A stretch of DNA of 64,000 bases from an uncultured Clostridia bacterium (GTDB taxonomy: Bacteria; Bacillota; Clostridia; Oscillospirales; CAG-272), in the NCBI GenBank assembly GCA_947588825.1, contig CANPZU010000002.1:12750-76749 (forward strand), given 5' to 3'. Shown piece after piece: positions 4,227 to 57,700 of the stretch. Each line of letters opens with the position of its first letter. Position 1 is the stretch's first letter. The notes beneath the pieces were generated by a model, which saw only the letters and a list, made by a program, of their open reading frames with translations, was not told the origin of the DNA and ran no database searches. The position numbers and the translations under genes are program-made.

Positions 4227-4265
4227 CTCTTTTCGGCCGCTCTTTTCTGCCGCTCTTTTCGGTGT
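4227..4265. repeat. 13-bp tandem repeat x3 (CTCTTTTCGGCCG-like)
   Basis: ctcttttcggccg / ctcttttctgccg / ctcttttcggtgt read directly in the metY-cysK divergent region. Confidence 0.6.
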
Positions 4266-4299: not shown

Positions 4300-4354
4300 A
4301 TTTTTATAAGATTTTTATAAGATTTTTATAAGATTTTTATATGGTTTTTATAAT
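4300..4354. repeat. 11-bp tandem repeat, about 5 copies (ATTTTTATAAG), with phased T5 tracts
   Basis: Three exact units at 4300, 4311 and 4322, followed by two degenerate units. The 11-bp phasing of T-tracts is read directly. Confidence 0.8.
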
Positions 4355-4568: not shown

Positions 4569-5498
4569 ATGAAAGTATACAACAGCATCACCGAGCTGAT
4601 AGGACATACTCCTCTTTTAAGGCTCGTAAATTTCATTAAGGAAAACAATATAGAAGCTGACATTCTCGCAAAACTTGAGTACTTCAACCCCGCCGGAAGC
4701 GTTAAAGACCGCATTGCAAAGGCAATGATCGACGACGCCGAGGCAAAGGGCGCCTTAAAGCCGGGGGCTGTCATTATCGAACCTACCAGCGGAAACACCG
4801 GTATAGGTCTCGCCGCTGTCGCCTCCTCAAAAGGCTACAGAGTTATTCTCACCATGCCCGAGACGATGAGCGTCGAAAGACGCAACCTGCTTCGTGCATA
4901 CGGGGCTGAACTTGTGCTCACCGAAGGGGCAAAGGGCATGAAGGGCGCTATCGATAAGGCAAACGAACTCGCCGCCTCAATCAAAGGAAGCTTTATACCA
5001 GGTCAGTTCGTTAACCCCGCTAACCCCGCTGCCCATAAGGCCGCAACCGGCCCCGAAATATGGGAGGATACCGAGGGTATGGTCGACATATTCGTCGCGG
5101 GCGTCGGCACCGGCGGCACTCTCTCCGGCGTCGGCGAATATCTCAAAAGCAAAAAGCCCGGTGTCAGAGTAATCGCCGTGGAACCCGCCTCCTCCCCCGT
5201 GCTCTCAAAGGGTACCCCCGGACCGCATAAAATCCAGGGCATTGGAGCCGGTTTTGTTCCCGATACGCTCAATACCTCAATATATGACGAAATTATTACG
5301 GTAGACAGCGAAGACGCCTTTAAAATGGGCAAAACCCTCGCAAGAAAAGAAGGACTCCTCGTTGGTATCTCCTCAGGCGCCGCATTGGCAGCCGCCGCAA
5401 AACTCGCAAAACGCCCCGAAAACAAGGGCAAAACAATCGTCGTCCTTATGCCCGATACCGGAGAAAGATATCTCTCTACCCCTATGTTCTCCGACTGA
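4569..5498 (+). CDS. cysK: Cysteine synthase A (O-acetylserine sulfhydrylase)
   Basis: 309 aa with ..[11 protein letters not shown].. (PLP lysine) and ..[10 protein letters not shown].. RBS is AAGGAGAG. Confidence 0.92.
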
Positions 5499-6034: not shown

Positions 6035-6185
6035 TTTTATCACAACTCCCCACATATTTTTTCACTTTATGATAACATATTTTTTTCCGCCTTTCAAGCC
6101 TTTATACGAAAATTTGTGACCAATATTCATCTCCCGCACCGTCGGATGAAAAAACGTCCCGTTGGTCAAAATATATCGCCCTTTC

Positions 6186-6263
6186 GGGGAGCTTTTTGAA
6201 AAAAGCCTCCCCGAACCCCTGCAAAAACTTTAAAACTATAAAGACAGCCGCGTTTGTGCGACC
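6186..6263 (+). repeat. Repeat module A, copy 1
   Basis: GGGGAGCTTTTTGAAAAAAGCCTCCCC hairpin, GAACCCCTGCAAAAACTTTAAAACT, then a CCGCGTTTGTGCG hairpin. Near-identical at 12804, 57172 and, inverted, at 21245 and 21337. Confidence 0.85.
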
Positions 6264-6270
6264 TTTTCTG

Positions 6271-6453
6271 CTTTATAAACCTTAGAGTGGAATCTTCATT
6301 AGCGCGGACGCTCTGCCGCCCTTCGGGCGTGCAGAGTCAGGAGAAAGGGGTACGGCGTCGGGGGAAAGCGAGCTTTCACCGAGTCGTCGTACCCCTTTCT
6401 CCTGACCTTGCGGGGCAAAGCCCCGCAAGGCCCGCCGCGCCGCACTACGGTTT
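6271..6453 (+). repeat. Repeat module C, copy 1 (three consecutive stem-loops)
   Basis: CTTTATAAACCTTAGAG...CGCACTACGGTTT. Homologous to 57257-57440 (+) and 21056-21239 (-). Confidence 0.85.
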
Positions 6454-6466
6454 CTTTATTTAATTT

Positions 6467-6690
6467 GTTTCCCCGGCTTTTCAAAAGCCGGCGGGTCGAG
6501 GGCAGAGCCCCGTCGCGCCCGCAGGCGCGAAAGGCCCTTAAATAAGCGATGCACGCAAATAAGGCATCCGTGCCGCGCTGCGGTTTACTTTGTTTGTTTC
6601 CCCGGCTTTTTATAAAGCCGGCGACGGTCAAGGGCGAGGAGCCCTTGTCGCGCCCGCAGGCGCGAAAGGCCCATTAATAAGCGATGCGTA
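6467..6690 (+). repeat. Repeat module B, two tandem units
   Basis: Each unit has a CCGGCTTTT.AAAAGCCGG hairpin, a GGGC..GCCC hairpin and a CGCGCC-CGCA-GGCGCG hairpin. Unit cores lie at 6467-6533 and 6596-6668. Confidence 0.85.
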
Positions 6691-6696
6691 CAAAAT

Positions 6697-6740
6697 AAAA
6701 GCAAGAGCGCTCATCCTTACAGACGGGCGTTCCTGCATTT
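6697..6740 (-). terminator. Probable intrinsic terminator after pnp
   Basis: The minus strand reads GCAGGAACGC-N16-GCGCUCUUGC followed by UUUUAUUUUG. The stem is imperfect. Confidence 0.45.
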
Positions 6741-6755
6741 TAAGCAATATAGCAA

Positions 6756-8978
6756 TTATTCCTCATCGTTTCTATCGCCGCCTCTGCGCGAGGGGAAGCG
6801 AGGACCGCGTTTTTTATCACTGCCGCGATCAAACGAGCGAGGTTTTCTATCCTCATGGCCTTCGGGTTTAGGAAGAGAGGCCTTAACGGAGAGGTTAATT
6901 CTACCCTTATCATCCACGCCGAGGTACATAACGGTGACGATATCGCCCTCGTTAACGACGTCCTCGACCTTTTCGACAAAGCTATAGGAGAGGTCTTTGA
7001 TATGGCACATACCCTCTTTACCGGGGGCGAACTCGATGAAAGCGCCGATAGGGATAATTCTTGTGACCTTACCGGTATAAATAGCGCCAATTTCCGGTTC
7101 GAAGCAGATATCGTCTATCATTTTCTTTGCTGCCAATGCGCCGTCGCGGTTAACGGAAGCGATATAGATAGTACCGTCCTCTTCGATATCGATTTTAGCT
7201 CCGGTATCGGCGGTAATTTTTTGGATAACCTCGCCGCCCTTACCGATGACCTCGCGAATTTTTTCCGTCTTAATATGCATAGTGATCATCTTAGGAGCGT
7301 TTTCAGCGACCTCAGCTCTCGGCTCAGGGATACATTTAGTGATTATTTCGTCGATAATATATTCTCTGCCGCGGCGAGTTTTATCGAAGGCGGACCTGAT
7401 TATTTCAGGTGTAAGGCCGTCGATTTTAAGATCCATCTGAATAGAGGTTATACCCTTATGGGTACCGGCGACCTTAAAATCCATATCGCCGTAAAAGTCC
7501 TCGACGCCCTGGATATCGATCATTGTATCCCAGCTTCCGTCCTCAGCGGTTATAAGGCCGCAGGAGATACCGGCTACAGGGGCTTTAATCGGGACGCCTG
7601 CTGCCATAAGTGCGAGAGTGGAGCCGCAGACGGAGGCCTGAGAGGTGGAGCCGTTAGAGCTAATGACCTCAGAGACAAGGCGAATGGCGTAAGGAAATTC
7701 TTCAACAGAGGGAAGAACGGGGAGCAATGATCTTTCGGCGAGTGCGCCGTGGCCTATTTCTCTTCTTCCGGGGCTGCGCACTGCCTTAGCCTCGCCGGTA
7801 GAAAAGCCGGGCATATTATAATGGTGCATATATCGTTTAGAGGTTTCCTCATCGATGGTATCGAGTTCTTGCGCGTCGGATATTATACCGAGTGTAGCGA
7901 CGGTGAGAACCTGAGTTTGACCTCTGGTAAACATACCCGAGCCATGGACTCTGGGCAGCAGGTCGACCTCCGCCGCGAGCGGGCGAATGGTATCCATACT
8001 TCTTCCGTCAACTCTTTTTTTATCGACAAGAAGCCATCTGCGCACTATTTTCTTTTGGATTTTATATACGAGTTCGGGCATCATTGCCTCAAGTCCCTCG
8101 TACTTTTCGGAAAATTCAGCAAGGATTGCATCCTGTATCGGCACCATACGGGCGTCTCTTACCGTCTTATCATCGGTATCCATGGCGTACATGACGTCCT
8201 TTTCGCAGAAGGCAAATATCTCGTCGAACATATCGTGATCCAACTCGCAAGAGGGGTACTCGAACTTAGGCTTGCCGACCTCGCTCACAATACCGTCGAT
8301 AAAGGTACAAAGTGTTTTTATCACCTCGTGGGCCTTCATTATAGCGTCGAACATTGTATCGTCGTCCACTTCATTTGCGCCCGCCTCGATCATTACCACT
8401 TTTTCATGCGAACCGGCAACGGTGAGCTGAAGATCGGACCTCTTTCTCTGTTCGGAGGTAGGATTGACTACAAGCTCATTGTCGACAAGGCCCATGAAAA
8501 CGCCGGCGATAGGGCCGTTCCACGGGATATCGGATATTGAAAGGGCGATGGACGTACCGATCATAGCGGTTATTTCGGGCGAGCAATCGTGATCCACGCT
8601 GAGAACCATAAGATTGATTGCGACGTCGTTACGAAGGTCTTTGGGAAATAGGGGTCTTATGGGGCGGTCGATCACGCGGCTTGTCAATATTGCCTTTTCG
8701 CTGGGTCTTCCCTCGCGGCGGGTATAGCCGCCGGGAATTCTGCCGACAGCGTACATTTTTTCATCGAAATCCACCGAAAGGGGGAGAAAATCGATACCGT
8801 CTCTCGGCTTTGCGGAAGCTGTGGCGGTGGCGAGGATAACTGTTTCCCCATAGCTCACAAGGCAAGAGCCGTTTGCAAGGCCGGCCATCTTACCCGTCTC
8901 AACTTTAAGCGTTCTTCCCGCTAAAGTTGTTTCAAACACTCGATAGTTTTTAAACTGCATTATTTCTGACATTGCCAT
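6756..8978 (-). CDS. pnp: Polyribonucleotide nucleotidyltransferase (PNPase)
   Basis: Full-length PNPase architecture by eye: two RNase PH-like regions, then KH and S1 at the C-terminus (..GKVTRIIPIGAFIEFAPGKEGMCHIKDLS..). The start is ambiguous among ATGs at 8978, 8972 and 8960. Confidence 0.92.
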   Translation of the reverse strand: MAMSEIMQFKNYRVFETTLAGRTLKVETGKMAGLANGSCLVSYGETVILATATASAKPRDGIDFLPLSVDFDEKMYAVGRIPGGYTRREGRPSEKAILTSRVIDRPIRPLFPKDLRNDVAINLMVLSVDHDCSPEITAMIGTSIALSISDIPWNGPIAGVFMGLVDNELVVNPTSEQRKRSDLQLTVAGSHEKVVMIEAGANEVDDDTMFDAIMKAHEVIKTLCTFIDGIVSEVGKPKFEYPSCELDHDMFDEIFAFCEKDVMYAMDTDDKTVRDARMVPIQDAILAEFSEKYEGLEAMMPELVYKIQKKIVRRWLLVDKKRVDGRSMDTIRPLAAEVDLLPRVHGSGMFTRGQTQVLTVATLGIISDAQELDTIDEETSKRYMHHYNMPGFSTGEAKAVRSPGRREIGHGALAERSLLPVLPSVEEFPYAIRLVSEVISSNGSTSQASVCGSTLALMAAGVPIKAPVAGISCGLITAEDGSWDTMIDIQGVEDFYGDMDFKVAGTHKGITSIQMDLKIDGLTPEIIRSAFDKTRRGREYIIDEIITKCIPEPRAEVAENAPKMITMHIKTEKIREVIGKGGEVIQKITADTGAKIDIEEDGTIYIASVNRDGALAAKKMIDDICFEPEIGAIYTGKVTRIIPIGAFIEFAPGKEGMCHIKDLSYSFVEKVEDVVNEGDIVTVMYLGVDDKGRINLSVKASLPKPEGHEDRKPRSFDRGSDKKRGPRFPSRRGGDRNDEE

Positions 8979-12704: not shown

Positions 12705-12803
12705 ATATAGCAAATTTCCTTTCAAATAGTATTCCTTCTCAGTATATGCCGTATCCGACCGTCGGGATACATTTCGAAAAAACGGATCGCTCGGTTTTTT
12801 TTC

Positions 12804-12917
12804 GGGGAGCTTTTTGAAAAAAGCCTCCCCGAACCCCTGCAAAAACTTTAAAACTGCTAATACGGCCGCGTTTGTGCGGCCCCTTCGCGCCCGCAGGCGC
12901 GAAATCCCCTAAATAAG
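12804..12917 (+). repeat. Truncated repeat element: module A joined directly to the last hairpin of module B
   Basis: 12804-12881 matches module A. 12882-12917 reads CCTTCGCGCCCGCAGGCGCGAAATCCCCTAAATAAGG, which is the B 3' end. Confidence 0.8.
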
Positions 12918-12948
12918 GCTTCATACAAAAGCGCGGTGTCGAATTATA

Positions 12949-14505
12949 TTAAAGCTCAGATCCTGTATACCAATCGAACTTAAAGAGCTCGTCGTTGATC
13001 ATATATTCAGAGGGGAGGCTGTTATATGTTGCGTCGAGGACCGAAAGCTTATCAAGGCCTTTTGAAGCCGTTTCGAAAAGCGATTGAAAGAGCGGTTTAT
13101 CCTCGGGCGGCATACTGTCATAGGCGCAAGAGATAAAGAAAGGAGAAGCGCTTTTTGCGAGCAAGGTTGCCCACTGCAAATTGAGATTTTTATCGATTTT
13201 ACCGGGGATGATGCCGACGCAGTCGGCGTCGGCGGCGTAAAATGTATTATTTTGGCAAGATCGGAAGGCGAGAGTATTCACGCCCATTTTTCTTGTTCGT
13301 TTCCAATCGGTGCCGCTTGTATCGTCGCCGGTTCTATTAGCGTGGACGAGGCCGGCGGCGAGGTGTGAGATGCAGTTACAACCGAGGATCATCGCCTTAT
13401 TATGAGTGGCGTCGAGTATAGTTTTATAGAAATATTTAATTATTTCGGCGCTTGTTTTACTCTCGTCGGAGAAGGACCAATTTCCGTCGCAGAGGAGTTT
13501 ATTGCACTGAAAACCCCATTTACCGAAAATATCGAATGTTGAATAATCGTGTTTAATCAATTCATAGCCCCAATCGAGGACGAACTTTTCGGTATCCTTT
13601 TTAACAAAGTCAAGCACTTCCGATTCGGAAGGGTCAAGGGGGAGTTTCAGAAAATCGCTTGAATCCTGCGGTATATTATTTTTGTTAAGGCGCCAATGAG
13701 GGGGGATATTTTTTCTTTCGTCTCTGAGGTATCGGACCCAAAGGCCGGGTCGGACTCCGAGTTTTTTAAACTCATCGGCGATTTTTTTCATATCCTTAAA
13801 GCGTTCGTTAACCTGCCAGGGGCCGGCGCAGGGATTAAGCTGCCAGCCGTCGTCAACGACCATAAACGGGCGGTTTACAAGGCCGCTTGCGAGTTCGGCC
13901 TGAAGCTTTGCGTCCTTTATTATCTGCTCATAGGAGCTGTTGCCGTAGGCATAATACCAATTGTTTCCGCCATACAGAGGTTTATCGGGGAGAAGCGGGA
14001 GCGGGCACATAAGTCTGCAAAAGAGAGCGGAGGCTTCGGAGAAACTAAGGCCCGAGTATGCAGCGCTCACGACCGTACAGAGGCAGAGGGTTCTGCCCTG
14101 AAGACGCACGCCCTTACACCCGCATCTTGTGTCAAGAAAGAGGGATATACCCTTTTCGTCGTATCTCCAGCACGCCATAGCGTCGGGCAAGGTCATGACG
14201 CCGTATCCCGCAAAGACGTCTTCATGTTTTGCAAAGAAGTACCAGGGCATATATTGGCTGCCGTTCATGCTTTTAAAACCGAGGTCTCCGTACCCTCTTT
14301 CCCAGGCGTCGGAGAGAACGAGAGTATCCTTTTCACTTTGGCCGTACCAGCGCAAAAGTACGCTTTTAGGGCGACTGTTAACGGCGGTGAGGGTCACGCC
14401 GAGCATACCGAAATAAGGTTTTATTGTGAGCTTGCAGTCGTTTTCGGACGACTCATCTTCAAGCTCGATATGAGTAAAGTCAGGCATACGGTTAATATTT
14501 ACCAT
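12949..14505 (-). CDS. Putative glycoside hydrolase, alpha-galactosidase-like (clan GH-D type DDGW motif)
   Basis: 518 aa with ..GGNNWYYAYGNSS.. and ..FMVVDDGWQ.. reminiscent of GH27/GH36. The family assignment is tentative. Confidence 0.45.
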   Translation of the reverse strand: MVNINRMPDFTHIELEDESSENDCKLTIKPYFGMLGVTLTAVNSRPKSVLLRWYGQSEKDTLVLSDAWERGYGDLGFKSMNGSQYMPWYFFAKHEDVFAGYGVMTLPDAMACWRYDEKGISLFLDTRCGCKGVRLQGRTLCLCTVVSAAYSGLSFSEASALFCRLMCPLPLLPDKPLYGGNNWYYAYGNSSYEQIIKDAKLQAELASGLVNRPFMVVDDGWQLNPCAGPWQVNERFKDMKKIADEFKKLGVRPGLWVRYLRDERKNIPPHWRLNKNNIPQDSSDFLKLPLDPSESEVLDFVKKDTEKFVLDWGYELIKHDYSTFDIFGKWGFQCNKLLCDGNWSFSDESKTSAEIIKYFYKTILDATHNKAMILGCNCISHLAAGLVHANRTGDDTSGTDWKRTRKMGVNTLAFRSCQNNTFYAADADCVGIIPGKIDKNLNLQWATLLAKSASPFFISCAYDSMPPEDKPLFQSLFETASKGLDKLSVLDATYNSLPSEYMINDELFKFDWYTGSEL

Positions 14506-17539: not shown

Positions 17540-18982
17540 TCAACGGTTTGCTCTTCTCTTTGTAGCGACCACGGCAAGACCGAGAGTCGATACAAGCGCG
17601 AGAACGATTATTGCAAGAGAAGCGTCGCCTGTTTCTGCGGGGCCTTGGCCGCCTGTACCTGTGCCTTCACCGCCTGTACCTGTGCCTTCGCCGCCTGTAC
17701 CTGTGCCTTCACCGCCTGTGGTGGGAGGAGTGATGGTATAAGCCGTTCCGTTATACTCTACACCGTCTGCGAGCGCGTCATATGTCACGTCACCGGTAAA
17801 CATAGCTATCTCACTAATCTGGAAGTAGCCGCCGTTGCCTTTGTTGGCAGTGATTTCTATGGTGTAGTAAGCGTAAGCCTTCGTAGCGTTCAGATTGAAA
17901 ATGAAATACATTTCACTAACAGCACTAATCTTAGCGTCGGTTGTTTCGAACACCTTAACGCCTTTTTCGGTCGCGGAGTCGGAGCCGTAAACTGTAAATG
18001 CTTTGGGAGCTCTGCCCGGGTAATCTTTATCATCGTGAGTTCCAAAGGCTATGTACTTCGGAGCACCCGCGGCAGTATCGGCCTTGAAGGTGATTGTAAC
18101 ACCCGCTTCAGGGAAATTACCCTCAATCTTTTTGGAGAGATCGCCGTCAAACAAAACCTTTCTGTCTTTATCTTTATCGAATTTGTCCGTTGTGCCGGTA
18201 GTAACTACTTCTGCATCGGACAGAGTCACCTTGGTACCATTTTTAGGAGCAAAGACAGTGGAAGAATTGATTGTCGCTGAAAAGCAGGTAGCGTTGTCGT
18301 TTGCGTCGGTATAAGTGAACTCAAGCAGAGAATAAGTTGTAACATAGTTTTCAGCCTTAAATATGTACAGCTTATCGCCGGCGTCGGTAGTCTTTATGTC
18401 GTCTACAACAAACTGGCCCTGATTGTCCCTATCTGATCTACCCTTTTTGCATTCGTCGTGAGTTTCGCCAACGACCGTCGTGCCTTTGGCAAGCTTGGGA
18501 TCGGTGTTGAAGATAATCTCGGCGGTTACGGTTTTGGCCTTGGTGTCAGCCGTTACCTTTGCATACTTTGTTCCCCATGCGGCATATTGAGAGGTAAATG
18601 TTTTCTCATAAACCTCGCCGTTGGGCATTGTAAGCTTAAGCTTGTTTTGGTCGTCCTTGGTCAAATCGGCGCCGACAATACCAAGCTGCAAAGAACTCTT
18701 GGTAATGTTATTATTGTCTCTGAGCTGGCAATGCGCGTAGCCGAGGTAACCGATATTCCAATACGCGGGTTTGCCGTTTACTTCGACCTTGATGTCCTCG
18801 AGCTTTTCGGCAATGGTCTTGTTAAAGTGCACGTCGCCCTCGACAAATCCGTGGTCTGCCTTGACGTTCTCGCTTGTGGGTGCAAGAGCGGGATCGTCAG
18901 CGGCAAACGCTGAAAGCGCACAAGGAACAATCATGATACATGCAAGAAGCATAGCAAGAATTGTTTTGAATGATCTTTTCAT
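17540..18982 (-). CDS. Secreted cell-surface protein with C-terminal sortase-type anchor (PAETG + TM + KRRANR)
   Basis: The N-terminal signal peptide is MKRSFKTILAMLLACIMIVPCALSAFA. The C-terminus is (GGEGTGT)x3..GPAETGDASLAIIVLALVSTLGLAVVATKRRANR. The central region resembles a discoidin/F5-8-type-C carbohydrate-binding module (tentative). Confidence 0.6.
   Translation of the reverse strand: MKRSFKTILAMLLACIMIVPCALSAFAADDPALAPTSENVKADHGFVEGDVHFNKTIAEKLEDIKVEVNGKPAYWNIGYLGYAHCQLRDNNNITKSSLQLGIVGADLTKDDQNKLKLTMPNGEVYEKTFTSQYAAWGTKYAKVTADTKAKTVTAEIIFNTDPKLAKGTTVVGETHDECKKGRSDRDNQGQFVVDDIKTTDAGDKLYIFKAENYVTTYSLLEFTYTDANDNATCFSATINSSTVFAPKNGTKVTLSDAEVVTTGTTDKFDKDKDRKVLFDGDLSKKIEGNFPEAGVTITFKADTAAGAPKYIAFGTHDDKDYPGRAPKAFTVYGSDSATEKGVKVFETTDAKISAVSEMYFIFNLNATKAYAYYTIEITANKGNGGYFQISEIAMFTGDVTYDALADGVEYNGTAYTITPPTTGGEGTGTGGEGTGTGGEGTGTGGQGPAETGDASLAIIVLALVSTLGLAVVATKRRANR
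17649..17720 (-). repeat. In-frame 21-bp tandem repeat x3 encoding GGEGTGT
   Basis: ccgcctgtacctgtgccttca repeated at 17649, 17670 and 17691. Confidence 0.85.
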
Positions 18983-20839: not shown

Positions 20840-21055
20840 GTTTGTAGCTGCAAATATGAGATTTCGCGCCTGCGGGCGCGACGGGGCTCTGCCCTCGACC
20901 CGCCGGCTTTTGAAAAGCCGGGGAAATAAATAGAACAAACCGTAGTGCAGCGCGCATGTCGCTTGTTGAGGAATCTTTCGCGCCTGCGGGCGCGACAAGG
21001 GCTCCTCGCCCTTGACCGTCGCCGGCTTTTAAAAAGCCGGAGAAATAAATAGAGT
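20840..21055 (-). repeat. Repeat module B, two tandem units (inverted orientation)
   Basis: TTTCGCGCCTGCGGGCGCG..CCGGCTTTTGAAAAGCCGG at 20862-20927 and 20976-21045 is the reverse complement of 6467-6690. Confidence 0.85.
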
Positions 21056-21239
21056 AAACCGTAGTGCGGCGCGGCGGCCTTGCGTGGGCAAAGCCTACGC
21101 AAGGTCAGAGCAGGAGGGTACGGCGTCGGGGGAAAGCGAGCTTTCACCGAGTCGCCGTACCCTTCTGCACTGACTCTGCACGCCCGAAGGGCGGCAGAGC
21201 GTCCGCGCTAATGAAGATTCTGCTCTAAGGTTTATAAAG
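21056..21239 (-). repeat. Repeat module C, inverted copy (with flipped hairpin loops)
   Basis: Reverse complement of the 6271-6453 and 57257-57440 flanks. The central loops are in the same + strand orientation as the direct copies. Confidence 0.85.
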
Positions 21240-21244
21240 TGAAG

Positions 21245-21322
21245 GGCCGCACAAACGCGGCCGTCTTAGTAGTTCTGAAGTTTTTGAAGGGGTTCGGGGA
21301 GGCTTTTTTCAAAAAGCTCCCC
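21245..21322 (-). repeat. Repeat module A, inverted copy a
   Basis: GGCCGCACAAACGCGGCC..GGGGAGGCTTTTTTCAAAAAGCTCCCC. Confidence 0.85.
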
Positions 21323-21336
21323 GAGAAGAGCAAAGA

Positions 21337-21415
21337 GGCCGCACGAACGCGGCCGTCTTGGCAGTTTTGAAGTTTTTGAAGGGGTTCGGGGAGGCTTTTT
21401 TTCAAAAAGCTCCCC
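21337..21415 (-). repeat. Repeat module A, inverted copy b (abuts the ldh stop codon)
   Basis: GGCCGCACGAACGCGGCC..GGGGAGGCTTTTTTTCAAAAAGCTCCCC. It ends 8 nt from the ldh stop. Confidence 0.85.
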
Positions 21416-21422
21416 GAGACGA

Positions 21423-26732: not shown

Positions 26733-26821
26733 CAAAGGCACAGCAGTTCTTTTTACTGCTCCTCAAATGCGGATTATGCGCTTAAAATAAATTCATGGCG
26801 CTTTGAAATCCGAAGGGGGAA

Positions 26822-26875
26822 GGCGCCTCCAAAGCAAAACGCACCCAAAAGGGTGCATTTTGCTTTGGAGGCGCC
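26822..26875 (-). terminator. 25-bp hairpin at the end of the tRNA operon; one arm includes the last 10 nt of tRNA-Cys
   Basis: The minus-strand RNA reads GGCGCCUCCAAAGCAAAAUGCACCC-UUUU-GGGUGCGUUUUGCUUUGGAGGCGCC. The single non-Watson-Crick position is U.G only on the minus strand. Confidence 0.6.
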
Positions 26876-26939
26876 ACCCGGAATCGGACCGGGGATAAAG
26901 GTTTTGCAGACCTCTGCCTTACCGCTTGGCTATGGCGCC
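26866..26939 (-). tRNA. tRNA-Cys (GCA), CCA-encoded, discriminator U73
   Basis: GGCGCCATAGCCAAGCGGTAAGGCAGAGGTCTGCAAAACCTTTATCCCCGGTCCGATTCCGGGTGGCGCCTCCA. Cloverleaf read by eye. Confidence 0.9.
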
Positions 26940-26978
26940 TTTTTTGACAAGAACCACGCAACGCGTGGTTCTTAAAAA

Positions 26979-27054
26979 TGGAGCGGATTACGGGGCTCGA
27001 ACCCGCCACCTCCACCTTGGCAAGGTGGCGCTCTACCAAATGAGCTAAATCCGC
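26979..27054 (-). tRNA. tRNA-Gly (GCC), CCA-encoded
   Basis: GCGGATTTAGCTCATTTGGTAGAGCGCCACCTTGCCAAGGTGGAGGTGGCGGGTTCGAGCCCCGTAATCCGCTCCA. Confidence 0.9.
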
Positions 27055-27092
27055 ATAAGACAGCCGTCGCGCGTCTTAATGACCGCAAACGG

Positions 27093-27168
27093 TGGTGCCT
27101 CCGGTCGGAATCGAACCAACGACACGGGGATTTTCAGTCCCCTGCTCTACCAACTGAGCTACAGAGGC
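27093..27168 (-). tRNA. tRNA-Phe (GAA), CCA-encoded
   Basis: GCCTCTGTAGCTCAGTTGGTAGAGCAGGGGACTGAAAATCCCCGTGTCGTTGGTTCGATTCCGACCGGAGGCACCA. Confidence 0.9.
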
Positions 27169-27196
27169 ATAGAAGTTAAATCTGCTAAAACAAAAA

Positions 27197-27273
27197 TGGC
27201 GACCCGGATGGGGCTCGAACCCACGACCTCTAGCGTGACAGGCTAGCGCTCTAACCAACTGAGCTACCAGGCC
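27197..27273 (-). tRNA. tRNA-Asp (GTC), CCA-encoded
   Basis: GGCCTGGTAGCTCAGTTGGTTAGAGCGCTAGCCTGTCACGCTAGAGGTCGTGGGTTCGAGCCCCATCCGGGTCGCCA. Confidence 0.9.
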
Positions 27274-27279
27274 ATATTA

Positions 27280-27355
27280 TGGTGGGAACAATAGGGCTCG
27301 AACCTATGACCCTCTGCTTGTAAGGCAGATGCTCTCCCAGCTGAGCTATGCTCCC
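27280..27355 (-). tRNA. tRNA-Val (TAC), CCA-encoded
   Basis: GGGAGCATAGCTCAGCTGGGAGAGCATCTGCCTTACAAGCAGAGGGTCATAGGTTCGAGCCCTATTGTTCCCACCA. Confidence 0.9.
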
Positions 27356-33730: not shown

Positions 33731-33770
33731 GTTCAAAAATGTTCAAAAACGTTCAAAAACGTTCAAAAAC
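33731..33770. repeat. 10-bp tandem repeat x4 (GTTCAAAAAY), phased A5 tracts
   Basis: gttcaaaaat, then gttcaaaaac x3. On the minus strand each unit carries TTGAAC, 30-70 nt upstream of the 33700 start. Confidence 0.85.
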
Positions 33771-38002: not shown

Positions 38003-38034
38003 TCTTAGTTTCCCCGTTTTTGATCAAAATTTCA

Positions 38035-38077
38035 TTTCAATATTATTTCAATATTTCAATATTTCAATATTTCAATT
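38035..38077. repeat. 8-bp tandem repeat x5 (TTTCAATA) inside the rnfA-rnfB spacer
   Basis: Units at 38035, 38046, 38054, 38062 and 38070, read directly. Confidence 0.8.
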
Positions 38078-38098
38078 TTTCATTTAAATATTTCAAAA

Positions 38099-38677
38099 TT
38101 ACAGATTGATGCCCGAAAACCCGAAAAACGCCATAGCCATAAGTCCCGAAACAAGAAGCGTCAGCGGCATTCCGCGAAAGCTTTCGGGAACCTTTGTAAG
38201 ATCAAGGCTTTCTCTGATGGCGGCCATTATAATAATGGCAAGCGCGAAGCCGCAGGCGGTTCCAAAGCCCGAAAGAGTGCTCATAAGCAGTCCGTATCCG
38301 TTTTGAACGTTGGTAAGGGCGACGCCAAGCACCGCGCAGTTGGTGGTAATCAGAGGCAGGTAAACTCCGAGCGCCTCATAAAGCGGGCGCGAAAACTTTT
38401 TAAGGAACATCTCGATAAACTGGACAAGCGCGGCGATTATGAGAATGAACACTATGGTTGAAAGATATGTAAGCCCAAGCGTCTCGAGCACATAAGTGTA
38501 TATCAAAGAGGAGAGCGCCGAAGATACGGTTATAACAAATATGACGGCGATTCCCATGCCGTTTGCCGTTTTCAGATACCTCGACACGCCGAGAAAGGGA
38601 CAAAGTCCCAAAAACTGACTGAGCACCACGTTGTTTACAAGTATTGTGGTAAACAGCACAAGAAGGAGGTTCGTCAT
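38099..38677 (-). CDS. rnfA: Rnf complex subunit A
   Basis: 192 aa with ..NNVVLSQFLGLCPFLGVS.. as in canonical RnfA/NqrE-like proteins. Confidence 0.92.
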   Translation of the reverse strand: MTNLLLVLFTTILVNNVVLSQFLGLCPFLGVSRYLKTANGMGIAVIFVITVSSALSSLIYTYVLETLGLTYLSTIVFILIIAALVQFIEMFLKKFSRPLYEALGVYLPLITTNCAVLGVALTNVQNGYGLLMSTLSGFGTACGFALAIIIMAAIRESLDLTKVPESFRGMPLTLLVSGLMAMAFFGFSGINL

Positions 38678-46439: not shown

Positions 46440-47702
46440 ATGAGCAGAGTTTTGGTTATCGGCTGCGGCGGAGTCGCCTCCGTCGCCATAAAAAAGTGCT
46501 GTCAGGTAAGCGATGTCTTTTCCGAACTGTGCATAGCAAGCAGAACAATATCAAAGTGCGAGGCGCTTGCATCCGAGCTTCAAAGCCGCACAAGCACAAA
46601 AATAACTACGCGTCAGGTGGACGCCGACGACCTTGGTCAGCTTATAAGCCTTATAAATAGTTATAAGCCCGATCTTGTTATGAACATTGCCCTTCCCTAT
46701 CAGGATCTCACAATCATGGAAGCCTGTCTTGCCTGCGGCGTAAACTATATGGATACGGCAAACTACGAGCCCGAGGACACAAACAACCCCGAATGGCGAA
46801 AAATATATGAAAAAAGGTGCAAAGAAAAGGGCTTTTCGGCATACTTTGACTACAGCTGGCAGTGGGCGTACGAGGAGAAATTCAAAAAGGCGGGACTTAT
46901 CGCGCTGCTCGGCTGCGGTTTTGACCCCGGCGTCACCCAGGCATACTGCGCTTACGCAAAAAAGCACGAGTTTGACCTTATTGACACAATCGATATTCTC
47001 GACTGCAACGGAGGAGAGCACGGTTATCCGTTTGCCACCAATTTCAACCCCGAAATAAACCTCAGAGAAGTAAGCGCGCCCGGCAGCTATGTGGAAAACG
47101 GCAGGTGGGTCGAGGTCCCCGCGATGAGTATTAAAAGCCGTTACGATTTTGACGGGGTGGGCATAAAGGACATATACCTGCTCCATCACGAAGAGCTTGA
47201 GTCGCTTGCGAAAAACATACCCGAGGCACGGCGTATCCGCTTTTTCATGACATTCGGCGAAAGCTATCTCACTCATATGCGCTGCCTTGAAAACGTCGGA
47301 ATGCTCTCAACCACCCCCGTTCGCTTTGAAGGACGGGACATCGTTCCGATTCAATTTTTAAAGGCGCTCCTGCCCGATCCGGCAAGCCTTGGCCCTCGCA
47401 CGTACGGCAAAACCAATATCGGCTGTATTTTCACGGGCGAAAAGGACGGCAAAGGTAAAACTTATTATATTTACAACGTATGCGACCACCAGCAGTGCTA
47501 TAGGGAAACCGGGAGCCAGGCGATAAGCTACACGACGGGCGTTCCGGCAATGTGCGGCGCGCTTATGCTTCTTACCGGCAAATGGAACACGCCGGGCGTG
47601 CATACCGTCGAAGAATTTGATCCCGACCCCTTCCTCGTCGCGCTCGATAAATACGGTCTGCCTTACAAGGAAAACCGTTCTCCCGCCATTGTTTGCTTAT
47701 GA
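46440..47702 (+). CDS. Saccharopine-dehydrogenase-family enzyme (carboxynorspermidine/carboxyspermidine dehydrogenase type)
   Basis: 420 aa with ..VLVIGCGGVASV.. (Rossmann). The size and the nspC neighbour match CANSDH. Confidence 0.75.
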   Translation: MSRVLVIGCGGVASVAIKKCCQVSDVFSELCIASRTISKCEALASELQSRTSTKITTRQVDADDLGQLISLINSYKPDLVMNIALPYQDLTIMEACLACGVNYMDTANYEPEDTNNPEWRKIYEKRCKEKGFSAYFDYSWQWAYEEKFKKAGLIALLGCGFDPGVTQAYCAYAKKHEFDLIDTIDILDCNGGEHGYPFATNFNPEINLREVSAPGSYVENGRWVEVPAMSIKSRYDFDGVGIKDIYLLHHEELESLAKNIPEARRIRFFMTFGESYLTHMRCLENVGMLSTTPVRFEGRDIVPIQFLKALLPDPASLGPRTYGKTNIGCIFTGEKDGKGKTYYIYNVCDHQQCYRETGSQAISYTTGVPAMCGALMLLTGKWNTPGVHTVEEFDPDPFLVALDKYGLPYKENRSPAIVCL

Positions 47703-48922
47703 GCACTTTAACCTTAAAAGATGCAAGAGCGCCCTTTGCGCTGCTGTCTGAACAAAATGCGGCTCTCTTCTCAGAGCTTGCCACCCCCTGCTACGTCATA
47801 GACGAGCGCGCCCTTATCCGCAACTGCGATATTCTCGCCTCTCTTGCCAAAAACACGGGAGCAAAGATCCTGCTCGCTCAAAAGGCGTTCTCAAATTACG
47901 ACTTTTACCCCCTCCTCTCAAACTATCTTGCGGGCACCGAGGCAAGCGGTCTTTATGAAGCAAGGCTCGGCGCCGAACAGATGAAGGGCAAAGAGACGCA
48001 CGTCTTTTGCGCCGCATACGGCGAAAAAGAATTTGATGAAATACTTAAATACGCCGACCACATAGTCTTCAACTCGCCCGCAGAGCTGAAAAGGTTCGGT
48101 CCGGCCGCAAAAAGCGCAAAAAAAAGCGTGGGGCTCCGCATAAATCCCGAGTGCTCGACCCAAAAAAGCGCTCACGCGATTTATGACCCCTGCGCCGTCG
48201 GAAGCCGCCTCGGCGTTACGCTGAAAAATTGGCGTGAGCAAATGAGCGAATCGGAAGTACGTTTGCTCGACGGGCTCCATTTTCATACCCTTTGCGAACA
48301 GGATTCAATAGACCTTGAGATCACTCTTCGCGCCGTTGAGGAAAAATTCGGCTTCGTACTTTCGGACATGAAATGGCTCAATATGGGCGGCGGACACCAT
48401 ATTACCCGCCCGGGATATGACATAAAAAGACTTGAAAATTGCATTACCCGCGTAAAGGAGCGCTATAATGCAGAAGTCTACCTCGAACCCGGCGAGGCGG
48501 TCGCGCTTAACGCCGGATATCTGCTCTCCCGCGTGCGCGATATCGTAAAGAACGGCGGGTACGACACAGCCATCCTTGACACAAGCGCGGCATGCCATAT
48601 GCCCGACGTACTCGAGATGCCCTACACTCCCCCGCTTTACGGAGCGTGTGAGGAAAAGCCCGCCTTTGTATACCGCCTCGCCGGCCCGACCTGCCTTGCC
48701 GGCGACGTTATCGGAACCTACGGCTTTGATCGCGAGCTGCGTCGGGACAGCCTGCTCATATTCGGAGATATGGCAATATACACCACATGTAAAAACAATA
48801 CCTTTAACGGAATGCCCCTGCCCGATATCTGGCGCCTCGGCGAAAACGGCGCGCTCTTTCGACTCACGTCCTTTTCTTACGAGGACTTTAAGTCAAGACT
48901 CGGACGCCGTGACACAATTTGA
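47699..48922 (+). CDS. nspC: Carboxynorspermidine/carboxyspermidine decarboxylase
   Basis: ATGA overlap with the upstream gene. ..TPCYVIDE..L..N.., ..AQKAFS.. and ..LNMGGG.. fit an alanine-racemase-fold decarboxylase. Confidence 0.8.
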   Translation: MSTLTLKDARAPFALLSEQNAALFSELATPCYVIDERALIRNCDILASLAKNTGAKILLAQKAFSNYDFYPLLSNYLAGTEASGLYEARLGAEQMKGKETHVFCAAYGEKEFDEILKYADHIVFNSPAELKRFGPAAKSAKKSVGLRINPECSTQKSAHAIYDPCAVGSRLGVTLKNWREQMSESEVRLLDGLHFHTLCEQDSIDLEITLRAVEEKFGFVLSDMKWLNMGGGHHITRPGYDIKRLENCITRVKERYNAEVYLEPGEAVALNAGYLLSRVRDIVKNGGYDTAILDTSAACHMPDVLEMPYTPPLYGACEEKPAFVYRLAGPTCLAGDVIGTYGFDRELRRDSLLIFGDMAIYTTCKNNTFNGMPLPDIWRLGENGALFRLTSFSYEDFKSRLGRRDTI

Positions 48923-48924
48923 AA

Positions 48925-48958
48925 GGACGGCCGCGCAAACGCGGCCGTCCCGATTTTT
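48925..48958 (+). terminator. Intrinsic terminator after nspC
   Basis: GGACGGCCGCG-caaa-CGCGGCCGTCC followed by CGATTTTT. Confidence 0.8.
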
Positions 48959-55399: not shown

Positions 55400-55431
55400 G
55401 CCTTTTTGCCTTTTTGCCTTTTTGCCTTTTT
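55400..55431. repeat. 8-bp tandem repeat x4 (GCCTTTTT) next to the cotF-like/bioY convergent terminator
   Basis: Four exact units read directly. They are preceded by the hairpin AGGCG..CGCCT. Confidence 0.8.
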
Positions 55432-55445
55432 GTTTTACGGACGTT

Positions 55446-57094: not shown

Positions 57095-57137
57095 TATTAT
57101 AAAAAAATGAAGCTCAAAACGCTTTGAGCCCGATAAA

Positions 57138-57251
57138 CCGGCCGCGTTTGCGCGGCTCCTTCGCTCTTCTCGGGGAGCTTTTTGAAAAAAGCCTCCCCGA
57201 ACCCCTGCAAAAACTTTAAAACTGCCAAGACGGCCGCGTTTGTGCGGCTCC
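57138..57251 (+). repeat. Repeat module A, copy 4 (preceded by an extra GCCGCG-TTTG-CGCGGC hairpin)
   Basis: Near-identical to 6186-6263 and 12804-12881. Confidence 0.85.
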
Positions 57252-57256
57252 TTCGT

Positions 57257-57440
57257 TTTATAAACCTTAGAGCAGAATCTTCATTAGCGCGGCGAATGCT
57301 CTGTGCCCTTCGGGCGCAGAGTCAGGGCAAAAGGGTACGGCGTCGGGGGAAAGCGAGCTTTCACCGAGTCGCCGTACCCTTTTGCCCTGACCTTACGGCG
57401 GCAAAGCCGCCGCAAGGCACGCCGCGCCGCACTACGGTTT
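57257..57440 (+). repeat. Repeat module C, copy 4
   Basis: TTATAAACCTTAGAGCAGAATCTTCATTAGCGCGG...CGCACTACGGTTT. Confidence 0.85.
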
Positions 57441-57449
57441 ATACAGTTT

Positions 57450-57656
57450 GTTTCCCCCGCTTTTCAAAAGCCGGCGGGTCGAGGGCAGAGCCCCGTCGCG
57501 CCCGCAGGCGCGAAACACTCCTTAACAAGCCACGTGCGCGGTGCACTACGGCTTGTCTGATTTGTTTCCCCGGCTTTTCAAAAGCCGGCGGGTCGAGGGC
57601 AGAGCCCCGTCGCGCCCGCAGGCGCGAAACACTTTTTAACAAGCGACGTGCGGCGG
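57450..57656 (+). repeat. Repeat module B, two tandem units
   Basis: Cores at 57450-57515 and 57564-57630 are nearly identical to each other and to 6467-6533. Confidence 0.85.
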
Positions 57657-57689
57657 CAAACGCACAAAGTCCGCCCATACGGGGCAGAC
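57657..57689 (-). terminator. Intrinsic terminator after hsp20
   Basis: The minus strand reads GUCUGCCC-cgua-u-GGGCGGAC followed by UUUGUGCGUUU. Confidence 0.6.
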
Positions 57690-57700
57690 TTTGAGAAAGC

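Follow-up and report, generated by a model that had tools for sequence, protein, structure and literature searches.

A modular, hairpin-dense intergenic repeat resembling REP/BIME mosaic elements in an uncultured Clostridia bacterium

Organization and copy number of the repeat

We have analyzed a 64,000-nucleotide stretch of DNA (the window) from an uncultured Clostridia bacterium, corresponding to positions 12,750 to 76,749 of contig CANPZU010000002.1 in assembly GCA_947588825.1. Intergenic spaces beyond pnp, hsp20 and other genes contain a non-coding repeat assembled from three hairpin-forming modules, designated A (∼90 nt), C (∼185 nt) and B (∼115 nt), and the full composite spans ∼520 bp with approximately ten hairpins. 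Copy 1 occupies 6184–6695 and copy 2 57138–57656, both on the plus strand in the order A-C-B-B, and copy 3 lies inverted on the minus strand at 20840–21417. Module A is doubled in copy 3 with a 92-nt period, and half of a module A precedes copy 2. Copy 4 (12802–12935, plus strand) is truncated to a module A joined to one B-type hairpin, and a diverged module A is found at 162–208 on the plus strand. These five loci and one solitary hairpin of a module A type (48929–48946) make up the complement of the window. The initial annotation, drawn up from the DNA letters alone, had reported the repeat at five loci in these layouts, and direct reading of the bases, mechanical repeat finding and a four-way alignment agree with it; the two direct and one inverted A-C-B-B copies, the truncated form and the hairpin of the diverged module A (162–188) are all as described, and its module hairpins proved exact in position on a coordinate check. 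It had overlooked the solitary hairpin.

A 20-mer of module A, AAAAGCCTCCCCGAACCCCT, occurs five times in the window compared with 0.01 occurrences expected by chance, and a 20-mer of the B hairpin, TCGCGCCCGCAGGCGCGAAA, is found seven times without mismatch (0.03 expected). The hairpin GGCCGCG..CGCGGCC is also found seven times, with up to three mismatches (0.13 expected), and mechanical repeat finding recovered all of the module families. In the four-way alignment the full copies have the module order A-C-B-B in common, with 85–95% identity that is continuous through the module junctions, and because these junctions are conserved between loci we conclude that the ∼520-bp composite is copied as one unit. 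The B units are arranged in tandem with periods of 114, 119 and ∼135 nt; at least three are present at the same locus in a metagenome contig, and only one is present in a C-B copy that has been annotated publicly as a protein, P0001. Taken over the window, the metagenome contig and the P0001 copy, the layout is A(1-2)-C-B(1-3).

Structure of the modules

Module A comprises hairpin A-hp1 (GGGGAGC-T5-G-A6-GC-C-TCCCC), an A/T-rich linker and hairpin A-hp2 (GGCCGCG-TTTG-TGCGGCC, or more generally GGCCGCG-NNNN-CGCGGCC), the last being A-rich in its 5' flank and T-rich in its 3' flank. In module A of copy 1 (6184–6270, plus strand) A-hp1 lies at 6186–6212 and reads GGGGAGC-T5-G-A6-GCCTCCCC, followed by the linker GAACCCCTGCAAAAACTTTAAAACT and a degenerate A-hp2 at 6246–6263. 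The additional half-A of copy 2 (57138–57166, plus strand) consists of an A-hp2-type hairpin (57140–57157) and the linker CCTTCGCTCTTC, and the module A behind it (57167–57256, plus strand) contains A-hp1 at 57172–57198 and, at 57232–57249, a terminator-like A-hp2 with a T-rich tail. The tandem pair in copy 3 (21241–21417, minus strand) has A-hp2 at 21245–21262 and 21337–21354 and A-hp1 at 21296–21322 and 21388–21415. In copy 4 a complete module A (A-hp1 12804–12830, A-hp2 12864–12881) is joined directly to a B-type hp3 (12885–12902) with its tail, such that A-hp2 takes the place of the B-type hp2, and a covariance model of the B core scores the site at 34 bits. The diverged module A reads GGGGGAC-TTTTAT-AAAAAAC-GTCCCCC at 162–188, followed by a linker remnant, CCCTTCAAAAATTTTAT; the changes in its stem are compensatory, and the closest relative lacks the sequence in its orthologous gap.

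Module C is a domain of three hairpins enclosed by an outer helix that pairs TATAAACCTTAGAGC with GCACTACGGTTTATA and GCGCGGCG with CGCCGCGC. Its central hairpin, C-long, has a 22-bp stem and a structured loop of 27 nt. In copy 1 (6271–6454, plus strand) the closing helix TTTATAAACCTTAGAG ... GCACTACGGTTT surrounds C-hp1 with its TTCG loop (6311–6336), C-long with the 22-bp stem and inner stems (6336–6406) and C-hp3 (6406–6430). The corresponding hairpins in copy 2 (57257–57446, plus strand) are at 57299–57321, 57321–57391 and 57391–57417, and in copy 3 (21077–21240, minus strand) C-long and C-hp3 are at 21104–21174 and 21078–21104. Folded as DNA, the C core has an energy of −56.6 kcal/mol (z = −11.5 relative to shuffled sequences).

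Each B unit contains three hairpins, hp1 (CCGGCTTTT-C-AAAAGCCGG), hp2 (GAGGGC-AGA-GCCCC or CAAGGGC-GAGGA-GCCCTTG) and hp3 (CGCGCC-CGCA-GGCGCG), within closing helices GCTTGT/ACAAGC and TGTTT/AAACA. The two tandem units of copy 1 (6455–6695, plus strand) have hp1 at 6472–6491 and 6601–6621, hp2 at 6496–6512 and 6628–6647, and hp3, here TCGCGCC-CGCA-GGCGCGA, at 6513–6530 and 6648–6665, followed by the tail ...TAAATAAGCGATGC. Those of copy 2 (57447–57656, plus strand; hp3 at 57496–57513 and 57610–57627) are 95% identical to each other with a 114-nt period, and those of copy 3 (20840–21076, minus strand; hp3 at 20864–20881 and 20978–20995) have a 119-nt period. The element as a whole folds equally well on both strands (z ∼ −9 on either), folding z-scores extend from −2.3 to −11.5, the stems are GC-rich (CGCGCC/GGCGCG, GGCCGCG/CGCGGCC), and G.U pairs in the window hairpins are balanced, with four on one strand and five on the other. 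Open reading frames (ORFs) within the copies were judged spurious, as the initial annotation had proposed, although one of this kind is the publicly annotated P0001.

In copy 3 the 27-nt loop of C-long and the AAA loop of C-hp3 (21078–21174) are flipped relative to the flanks of the element and read identically, on the plus strand of the window, with those of copies 1 (6336–6430) and 2 (57321–57417). The pattern involves three copies and has a chance probability of 1 in 4. It is consistent with recombination or template switching between palindrome arms, and could reflect either such recombination or a constraint specific to the chromosome strand.

Conservation of the stems

We compared the window with ∼88 kb from five relatives, including contigs L141, L144 and L146, in which PNPase is 93%, 89% and 87% identical to that of the window. 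L144 carries a single B-like unit at 13321–13402 in which all three stems differ from those of the window yet still pair: hp1 is AAGCTTTT-TC-AAAAGCTT, hp2 is GGAAGGGC-AAA-GCCCTTCC and hp3 is CGCCTCT-CGCA-AGAGGCG. The closing helix has also changed in a compensatory manner, from TGTTT/AAACA to AGTTT/AAACT, and the CGCA loop is kept, as is the tail AAAC.CTCCTTAAC. Among the three C-long hairpins of the window there are four fully compensated double substitutions. Because both the B stems of L144 and the C-long stems change in this compensatory way, we conclude that the stems are actively maintained.

Genomic context and transcription signals

All of the copies are intergenic; on one side is the 3' end of a gene and on the other the next promoter or a 3' end that converges on the first. 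The B end adjoins a gene 3' end every time (those of pnp, hsp20, a gene for a 270-aa membrane protein and one for a 518-aa GH-like protein), and the A end faces the promoter region of the next gene, except in copy 3, where ldh has its 3' end on that side. The siting beyond gene 3' ends had been noted in the initial annotation, although some of its gene labels were wrong; a 191-aa gene beside the diverged module A, called an HD gene, has no match in Pfam, and the gene on the A side of copy 2 encodes a BirA-type biotin ligase/repressor. The orientation is common to three of the four copies, which lie on the strand judged to be lagging from GC skew.

Outside the element there are good sigma-70-like promoters at 6097–6069 and 57069–57041, and no promoter-like sites were found inside the elements. 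Several copies of A-hp2 are followed by a U-tract, as is the solitary hairpin at 48929–48946, and no U-tract follows A-hp1, the C hairpins or hp1 to hp3 of B, about eight other hairpins of the composite. No terminator-like sites other than the A-hp2 hairpins follow the ldh stop codon (21423), which lies 7 nt from the element, and A-hp2 is likewise flagged as terminator-like after module A of copy 2. The solitary hairpin (48925–48958 with its flanks, plus strand) is a canonical intrinsic terminator, GGACGGCCGCG-CAAA-CGCGGCCGTCC followed by CGATTTTTG, directly after the stop codon of the gene at 47693–48922. Copy 2 is bracketed by native hairpins on both sides: an ordinary intrinsic terminator, GGGCTCAAAGCGTTTTGAGCTT + CATTTTTTT (57110–57131, minus strand), lies beyond its A end just upstream of the birA promoter (57069–57041) and forms the outer limit of the element, and a second hairpin, AAAGTCTGCCCC-GTAT-GGGCGGACTTT followed by GTGCGTTTG (57666–57692, minus strand), lies after the hsp20 stop codon, between hsp20 and the B end. 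Because of this bracketing, copy 2 sits in a 'safe' space between terminator and promoter. It is partly shown by these signals that the element contributes at least termination or insulation, and by analogy with REPs stabilisation of upstream mRNAs is plausible.

At the site of copy 4 (12711–12948, compared with L141 4961–6307), relatives carry a gene of 382–391 aa between the gene for the 518-aa GH-like protein and asnB. This gene is absent from the whole window by tblastn, and the truncated element of A and hp3 occupies its place. The site may represent a deletion or rearrangement associated with the repeat.

Distribution of the composite

Short-read assemblies of the same species in ENA and Logan indicate that the element is multi-copy, since all 22 contigs with one of the flanking genes (12 of 12 with an identical hsp20 and 10 of 10 with an identical ldh) end inside it, 13–350 bp from the gene, as expected of a repeat that collapses de Bruijn graphs. 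A further copy, found through the translation of a spurious ORF that runs through the element, lies on a different NCBI contig of 59 kb; the 153-aa protein P0001 is the translation of this C-B copy, continuing into the flanking DNA. The expectation that copies exist beyond the window is thus borne out.

Beyond this species the composite was not seen in the sequences compared. In 185,579 species-representative genomes the module A 20-mer gives no match other than two by chance in metagenome-assembled genomes (MAGs) of Chitinophagaceae, modules A and C were not found in the ∼88 kb from the five relatives, no viral contig has the core of A or of C, and the composite has no blastn match among plasmids and phages. 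From these absences we conclude that the composite is a lineage-specific expansion. In the closest relative a plain terminator stands behind pnp, and with the B-core covariance model there are seven matches in the 64-kb window compared with one in the ∼88 kb of relatives. The only Rfam matches in the window at the gathering threshold are five tRNAs and none of the element matches; at E≤10, positions 6100–6800 give far-sub-threshold noise only. Literature searches by a hairpin 16-mer and by keyword found no description of the family, and with the Rfam, plasmid and phage results this agrees with the initial annotation in matching the element to no described family.

A wider family related to the B core

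The initial annotation had described module B from the window; the B core is, however, not confined to this genome. The hp3 20-mer is present in at least 120 metagenome contigs, many of them labelled human gut, and about half of the contigs listed share the two-hairpin core of B; modules A and C were not found in these contigs among the matches listed. The core of the wider family consists of a mini-hairpin C-GAA-G (or, in L072, a longer hp1), a variable hp2, hp3 and the tail AAAyCCCTGC. Its hp2 has a conserved GAYCGSAAA loop on 23 distinct stems, all of them complementary, and some members have an extra hairpin inserted within this loop. RNAalifold reports double changes in 11 of the 15 pairs. 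In an alignment of 149 model matches (127 distinct), 98.3% of cells pair compared with 85.3% in shuffled alignments, and 12 of the 15 pairs have compensatory changes, including those of hp3 in copies that were not chosen by the exact 20-mer; none of 500 shuffles reaches the observed value, although the alignment is itself fitted to the model. A candidate P1 helix joining the GAAGGGG leader to the tail CCCTGC was rejected, as the tail does not covary with leader variants.

Outside this genome the units are most often arranged as a head-to-head inverted doublet with a spacer of 76–90 nt or 22 nt, present at ∼10 non-redundant loci (L062 9598–9847; L115 1323–1567; L060, L036/L068, L098, L044, L018, L017, L026/L114 and L051). 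A doublet folds into one hairpin of ∼260 nt that brings together the variants CGCCTC..GAGGCG and CGCGCC..GGCGCG. Direct tandems also occur, of up to three units with a 98-nt period. When spurious ORFs are masked, units adjoin gene 3' ends 43 times and 5' ends 23 times, and relative to the gene they are sense in 18 cases and antisense in 25; this preference for 3' intergenic sites without a preference of strand is likewise REP-like behaviour (PMC3184786). Clustering of 1132 ORFs near the metagenome matches, in search of a transposase, yielded only orthologous housekeeping neighbours, and the ORFs bracketed by units match ThrRS, RhaA or RbfA in Pfam or are matchless, with no RAYT or transposase among them. 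Rfam gave no match at the wider-family loci. Through its B core the element is linked to a REPIN-like repeat family that is widespread in gut Clostridia and apparently undescribed.

Two further arrangements were observed among the metagenome contigs. A second family (L025, L029, L042, L089, L094, L120, L130 and ∼25 other loci) has only hp3 in common, with the consensus ..AAAAAGCCTCGCAGAG-TTCGCGCCCGCAGGCGCGAAA-..GATCGTTTTTTCyGrCGACATGyGCGTCrGAAAAAA..CTCGCGGAGCG; it often lies just past the terminator of a gene, its leader AAAAAGCCTC resembles module A, and it has no Rfam match. In L072, two B-like three-hairpin units, at 4847–4920 (plus strand) and 5403–5479 (minus strand), lie tail-to-tail around a non-coding stretch of 480 nt that is GC-rich and looks structured, with no Rfam match at E≤0.01.

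Nature of the element

Several explanations other than a REP-like repeat were weighed. Short-read assemblies do break at repeats, and A-hp2 resembles the genuine terminator at 48929–48946, as would suit an artefact of assembly or ordinary terminators clustered by chance. However, the junctions from gene to A end and from gene to B end are reproduced in independent ENA and Logan assemblies, U-tracts are missing from most of the hairpins, and a chance origin is impossible because three ∼520-bp copies are 85–95% identical while their unique flanks are all different; the reproduced junctions and the alignment effectively refute this explanation, and we assign it a negligible probability. Mobile DNA was also weighed. 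Pfam annotation of all 59 plausible ORFs in the window revealed no transposase, integrase, Y1/HUH protein, TnpA or TnpB, the A and B ends of the composite are not complementary, and no direct repeat is common to the flanks of the four copies; the initial annotation was accordingly right that the composite lacks terminal inverted repeats (TIRs) and target-site duplications (TSDs) and that the window lacks a transposase, but it had missed that module C is closed by 15 nt of inverted complementarity (57259–57273 with 57429–57443). Module C could on these grounds be an IS630/Tc1-type miniature within a pre-existing hairpin cluster, making the element a classical MITE (a miniature transposable element with inverted repeats) or a nest of them, mobilised by the transposase of a resident insertion sequence (IS). 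Its ends, TAAACC...GGTTTA, are flanked by a TA dinucleotide on either side in copy 2, the element has a nested, modular appearance, and the ends of the IS would match TATAAACCTTAGAG. The TA on the right is nevertheless missing in copies 1 and 3, and the right-hand 'TIR' is found before every B unit and is therefore part of the B leader. Module C is moreover never solitary and its neighbours are the same in all three copies, and with its core absent from viral contigs and the composite without TIRs, TSDs or a transposase we regard a MITE as very unlikely. A non-autonomous derivative of a palindrome-associated IS200/IS605 element would fit the missing TIRs and TSDs and the hairpins at both ends; its subterminal hairpins (A-hp1 or A-hp2, and hp3) would be bound by TnpA, and module C might be a remnant of a guide-RNA scaffold. 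The co-orientation of three of the four copies on the presumed lagging strand and the behaviour of the wider family, which fits recognition of single-stranded hairpins, are in keeping with it. Yet A-hp1 and hp3, the hairpins at the two ends, have no sequence relationship, no conserved target tetranucleotide is present in the left flanks (CTT, TTC, GTC, TTT), neither TnpA nor TnpB is encoded in the window, and there is no Rfam match to IS605-orfB, HEARO or other transposon-associated RNAs; an origin of this kind seems distinctly improbable.

A role at the level of RNA remains a live rival. The modules would then be structured RNAs under selection as such, either cis-acting elements of the 3' untranslated region (stabilisers or processing sites for pnp, hsp20 and ldh) or a multi-copy non-coding RNA, small or long, with the genomic repetition secondary. 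The architecture of B and C, each a multi-hairpin domain closed by a helix, is RNA-like, the covariation is strong, and UNCG-type loops are present (TTCG in C-hp1; C-UGCG-G when hp3 is read as its reverse complement). In the wider family the conserved hp2 loop, the extra-hairpin variants and the occurrence of G.T wobbles on one strand only point the same way, as does the uniform orientation at the four window loci relative to the upstream gene. Against these observations, the palindromes would yield the same 'covariation' if maintained as DNA, the window hairpins show no G.U asymmetry, the strand favoured by the wobbles is antisense to the upstream genes in the window, and members of the wider family are divided between sense (18) and antisense (25). 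There is also no promoter-like site within the elements and no Rfam match even at E≤1–10, and a strand-specific RNA could not tolerate the flipped loops of copy 3 unless only the chromosome strand matters. On balance we consider an RNA-level role unlikely.

We favour, with moderate confidence, a non-coding and non-autonomous mosaic repeat of the REP/BIME kind (repetitive extragenic palindromic sequences and the bacterial interspersed mosaic elements that they form) that has expanded in one Ruminococcaceae-like lineage of Clostridia and also supplies terminator-like hairpins. Spread through single-stranded DNA hairpins is preferred because both strands fold equally well, there is no G.U bias in the window, no preference of orientation in the wider family and no internal promoter detected, the loops are flipped, and modules have been duplicated, deleted and recombined at hairpin boundaries (the A-A pair, the half-A and the A+hp3 hybrid). 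The element would consist of three self-folding modules, A being a pair of terminator-like hairpins and C and B three-hairpin domains each closed by a helix, and the composite would land as a unit in intergenic DNA just past gene 3' ends. Both its spread and the upkeep of its stems could proceed on extruded single-strand hairpins, possibly through a trans-acting, single-copy HUH/Y1 enzyme resembling RAYT or the TnpA of IS200/IS605 and encoded elsewhere in the genome, or alternatively through gene conversion and template switching mediated by hairpins; processes of this kind would explain the duplicated modules, the hybrid of A and hp3 and the loop flips. After insertion the hairpins act as transcription terminators or insulators, as is partly shown by A-hp2 after ldh and by its solitary copy, and would probably also protect the 3' ends of neighbouring genes. 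We infer the copy number, the mobility of the element and an enzyme that mobilises it. The modular, variable-copy intergenic repeat proposed in the initial annotation, likened there to BOX, REP or ERIC elements, has otherwise come through negative searches of Rfam, plasmids and phages, the literature, TIRs and TSDs, and transposases.

Several observations weigh against the REP/BIME-like reading. No RAYT, IS200-like or other transposase was found in the window or among ORFs beside family members, or bracketed by them, in the metagenome contigs, and the mobilising agent is postulated by pure inference. The A and B units of the window are direct tandems rather than the alternating inverted REPs of classical BIMEs, and the alignment reveals no GTAG-like tetranucleotide or fixed target sequence flanking the element. 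Gene order differs at the relevant junctions in relatives, whether approached through PNPase or through the FAD oxidoreductase next to hsp20, which leaves no empty site for comparison. The B end has the same orientation relative to the gene 3' end at all four window loci, although with n = 4 this is not significant. In the wider family, 13 G.T wobbles and no A.C mismatches fall on the TCGCGCC strand, perhaps from five independent events; together with the conserved hp2 loop this hints at a strand-specific, single-stranded function, which could be that of an RNA.

A bolder proposal, which we put forward tentatively, concerns the B core. The bases around hp3 are conserved as T...AAA (G/C-T before, AAA after), extended to AAAyCCCTGC in the wider family, and the core, with a covarying hairpin that has a GAYCGSAAA-type loop and with the near-invariant hairpin CGCGCC-CGCA-GGCGCG, could be the recognition module of an undescribed, widespread REPIN-like replicator of gut Clostridia, served by an enzyme of HUH/RAYT or other type and captured here into a 520-bp A-C-B-B 'super-element' that replicates as a unit; or it could be a new strand-specific structured RNA or single-stranded DNA motif with a cellular function. 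Either form of the proposal is doubtful.

Comparison with known repeats

The element is a previously undescribed example of the known REP/BIME-type mosaic intergenic repeats and not a new class, and by analogy its closest functional and architectural counterparts are REP/BIME/REPIN and the BOX elements of Streptococcus pneumoniae. REP and BIME sequences are extragenic and occur preferentially where gene ends converge; they influence the stability of mRNA, and their mobilisation is attributed to RAYTs (PMC3184786), and group 1 RAYTs are present in Clostridia (PMC5581495). Like them, the element described here is made of GC-rich imperfect palindromes that are exclusively extragenic and enriched at gene 3' ends or between convergent genes, forms mosaic clusters with specific linker motifs, keeps its stems through compensatory change, and has no TIR, TSD or internal transposase. 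The inverted doublets of the wider family, folding as one long hairpin of two variants, recall the Y and Z REPs of BIMEs and the doublets of REPINs, and a secondary role in termination or mRNA 3' stability, likely here, is also a REP trait (PMC3184786). However, there is no sequence similarity, the host is a Gram-positive anaerobe, and the copied unit is 520 bp with ∼ten hairpins as opposed to 35 nt for a REP or ∼100 nt for a REPIN. The B units are direct tandems, a GTAG-type 5' tetranucleotide is absent and no cognate RAYT was found in the window or around the metagenome units. Strict REP/REPIN membership is not established.

BOX elements (boxA-boxB(n)-boxC) are likewise found in Firmicutes and have three modules in variable copy number (here A 1–2, C 1 and B 1–3), and are intergenic, highly structured and non-coding. 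In BOX the end modules complement each other, and their mobilisation is attributed to an IS transposase (PMC3184786), whereas no complementarity links the A and B ends of the present element, and its modules of ∼90, 185 and 115 nt are larger than those of BOX (59, 45 and 50 nt). The resemblance is architectural only, and kinship in sequence is not expected. Intrinsic (Rho-independent) terminators resemble A-hp2, with its A-rich 5' and T-rich 3' flanks and its recurrence as a plain terminator at 48929–48946, but ∼eight other hairpins of the composite have no U-tract and separate native terminators flank copy 2.

The Rhizobium-specific intergenic mosaic elements (RIME) and the enterobacterial ERIC/IRU sequences are intergenic repeats of 100–130 bp that form large palindromes with conserved loops and are restricted to particular lineages, and we know of no transposase for either. 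They belong to other phyla, have other sequences and consist of a single module, in contrast to a three-module composite with tandem sub-units. Two other candidates were set aside. The likeness of hp3 to type I-C CRISPR repeats is not borne out, as no CRISPR-DR model matches, the periods of 92–135 nt are wrong and there are no cas genes; integron attC sites were rejected as the neighbours are core housekeeping genes and not cassettes.

To our knowledge, the biology of REP, BIME and REPIN elements has been worked out almost wholly in Proteobacteria. Dense, modular palindromic repeats in uncultured gut Clostridia would carry it into a major gut phylum and would offer a handle on the repeat-mobilising enzyme, and the core hairpin in many gut metagenome contigs together with REPIN-like doublets suggests that the system may be widespread. 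Every copy breaks short-read assemblies, leading to fragmented MAGs and to spurious ORFs such as P0001, and a model of the elements would improve assembly and annotation of gut Clostridia. The elements may also serve as terminators or 3'-end stabilisers for highly expressed genes such as pnp, ldh and hsp20.

Other features of the window

The 59 ORFs annotated with Pfam are housekeeping genes or matchless. They include NifS/NifU, Cys/Met enzymes, Rrf2, S15, PNPase, AsnB, CysRS, LexA, Ldh, Hsp33 and MurC, as well as SpoVG, the Rnf complex, polyamine genes, ZnuABC, thioredoxin, CotF, BioY, BirA and Hsp20. A cluster of five tRNA genes (Cys, Gly, Phe, Asp and Val) extends from 26866 to 27355, with tRNA-Cys (26866–26939, minus strand) at its edge; the end of this gene is overlapped by the right arm of a 38-nt inverted repeat at 26809–26888 that is 82% complementary.

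Short AT-rich tandem repeats are found in intergenic or promoter regions at 4227–4262, 4300–4353, 33731–33770, 38024–38100 and 55400–55432, examples being ATTTTTATAAG repeated 4.9 times between a Cys/Met gene and cysK, GTTCAAAAAC repeated four times and GCCTTTTT repeated four times; these may be arrays of regulator binding sites. In-frame tandem repeats are present at 17642–17719 (a 21-nt unit, 3.7 times) and 62687–62758 (units of 18 and 24 nt), within large ORFs of 480 aa (17540–18982) and 877 aa (61310–63943), respectively, that are without Pfam matches.

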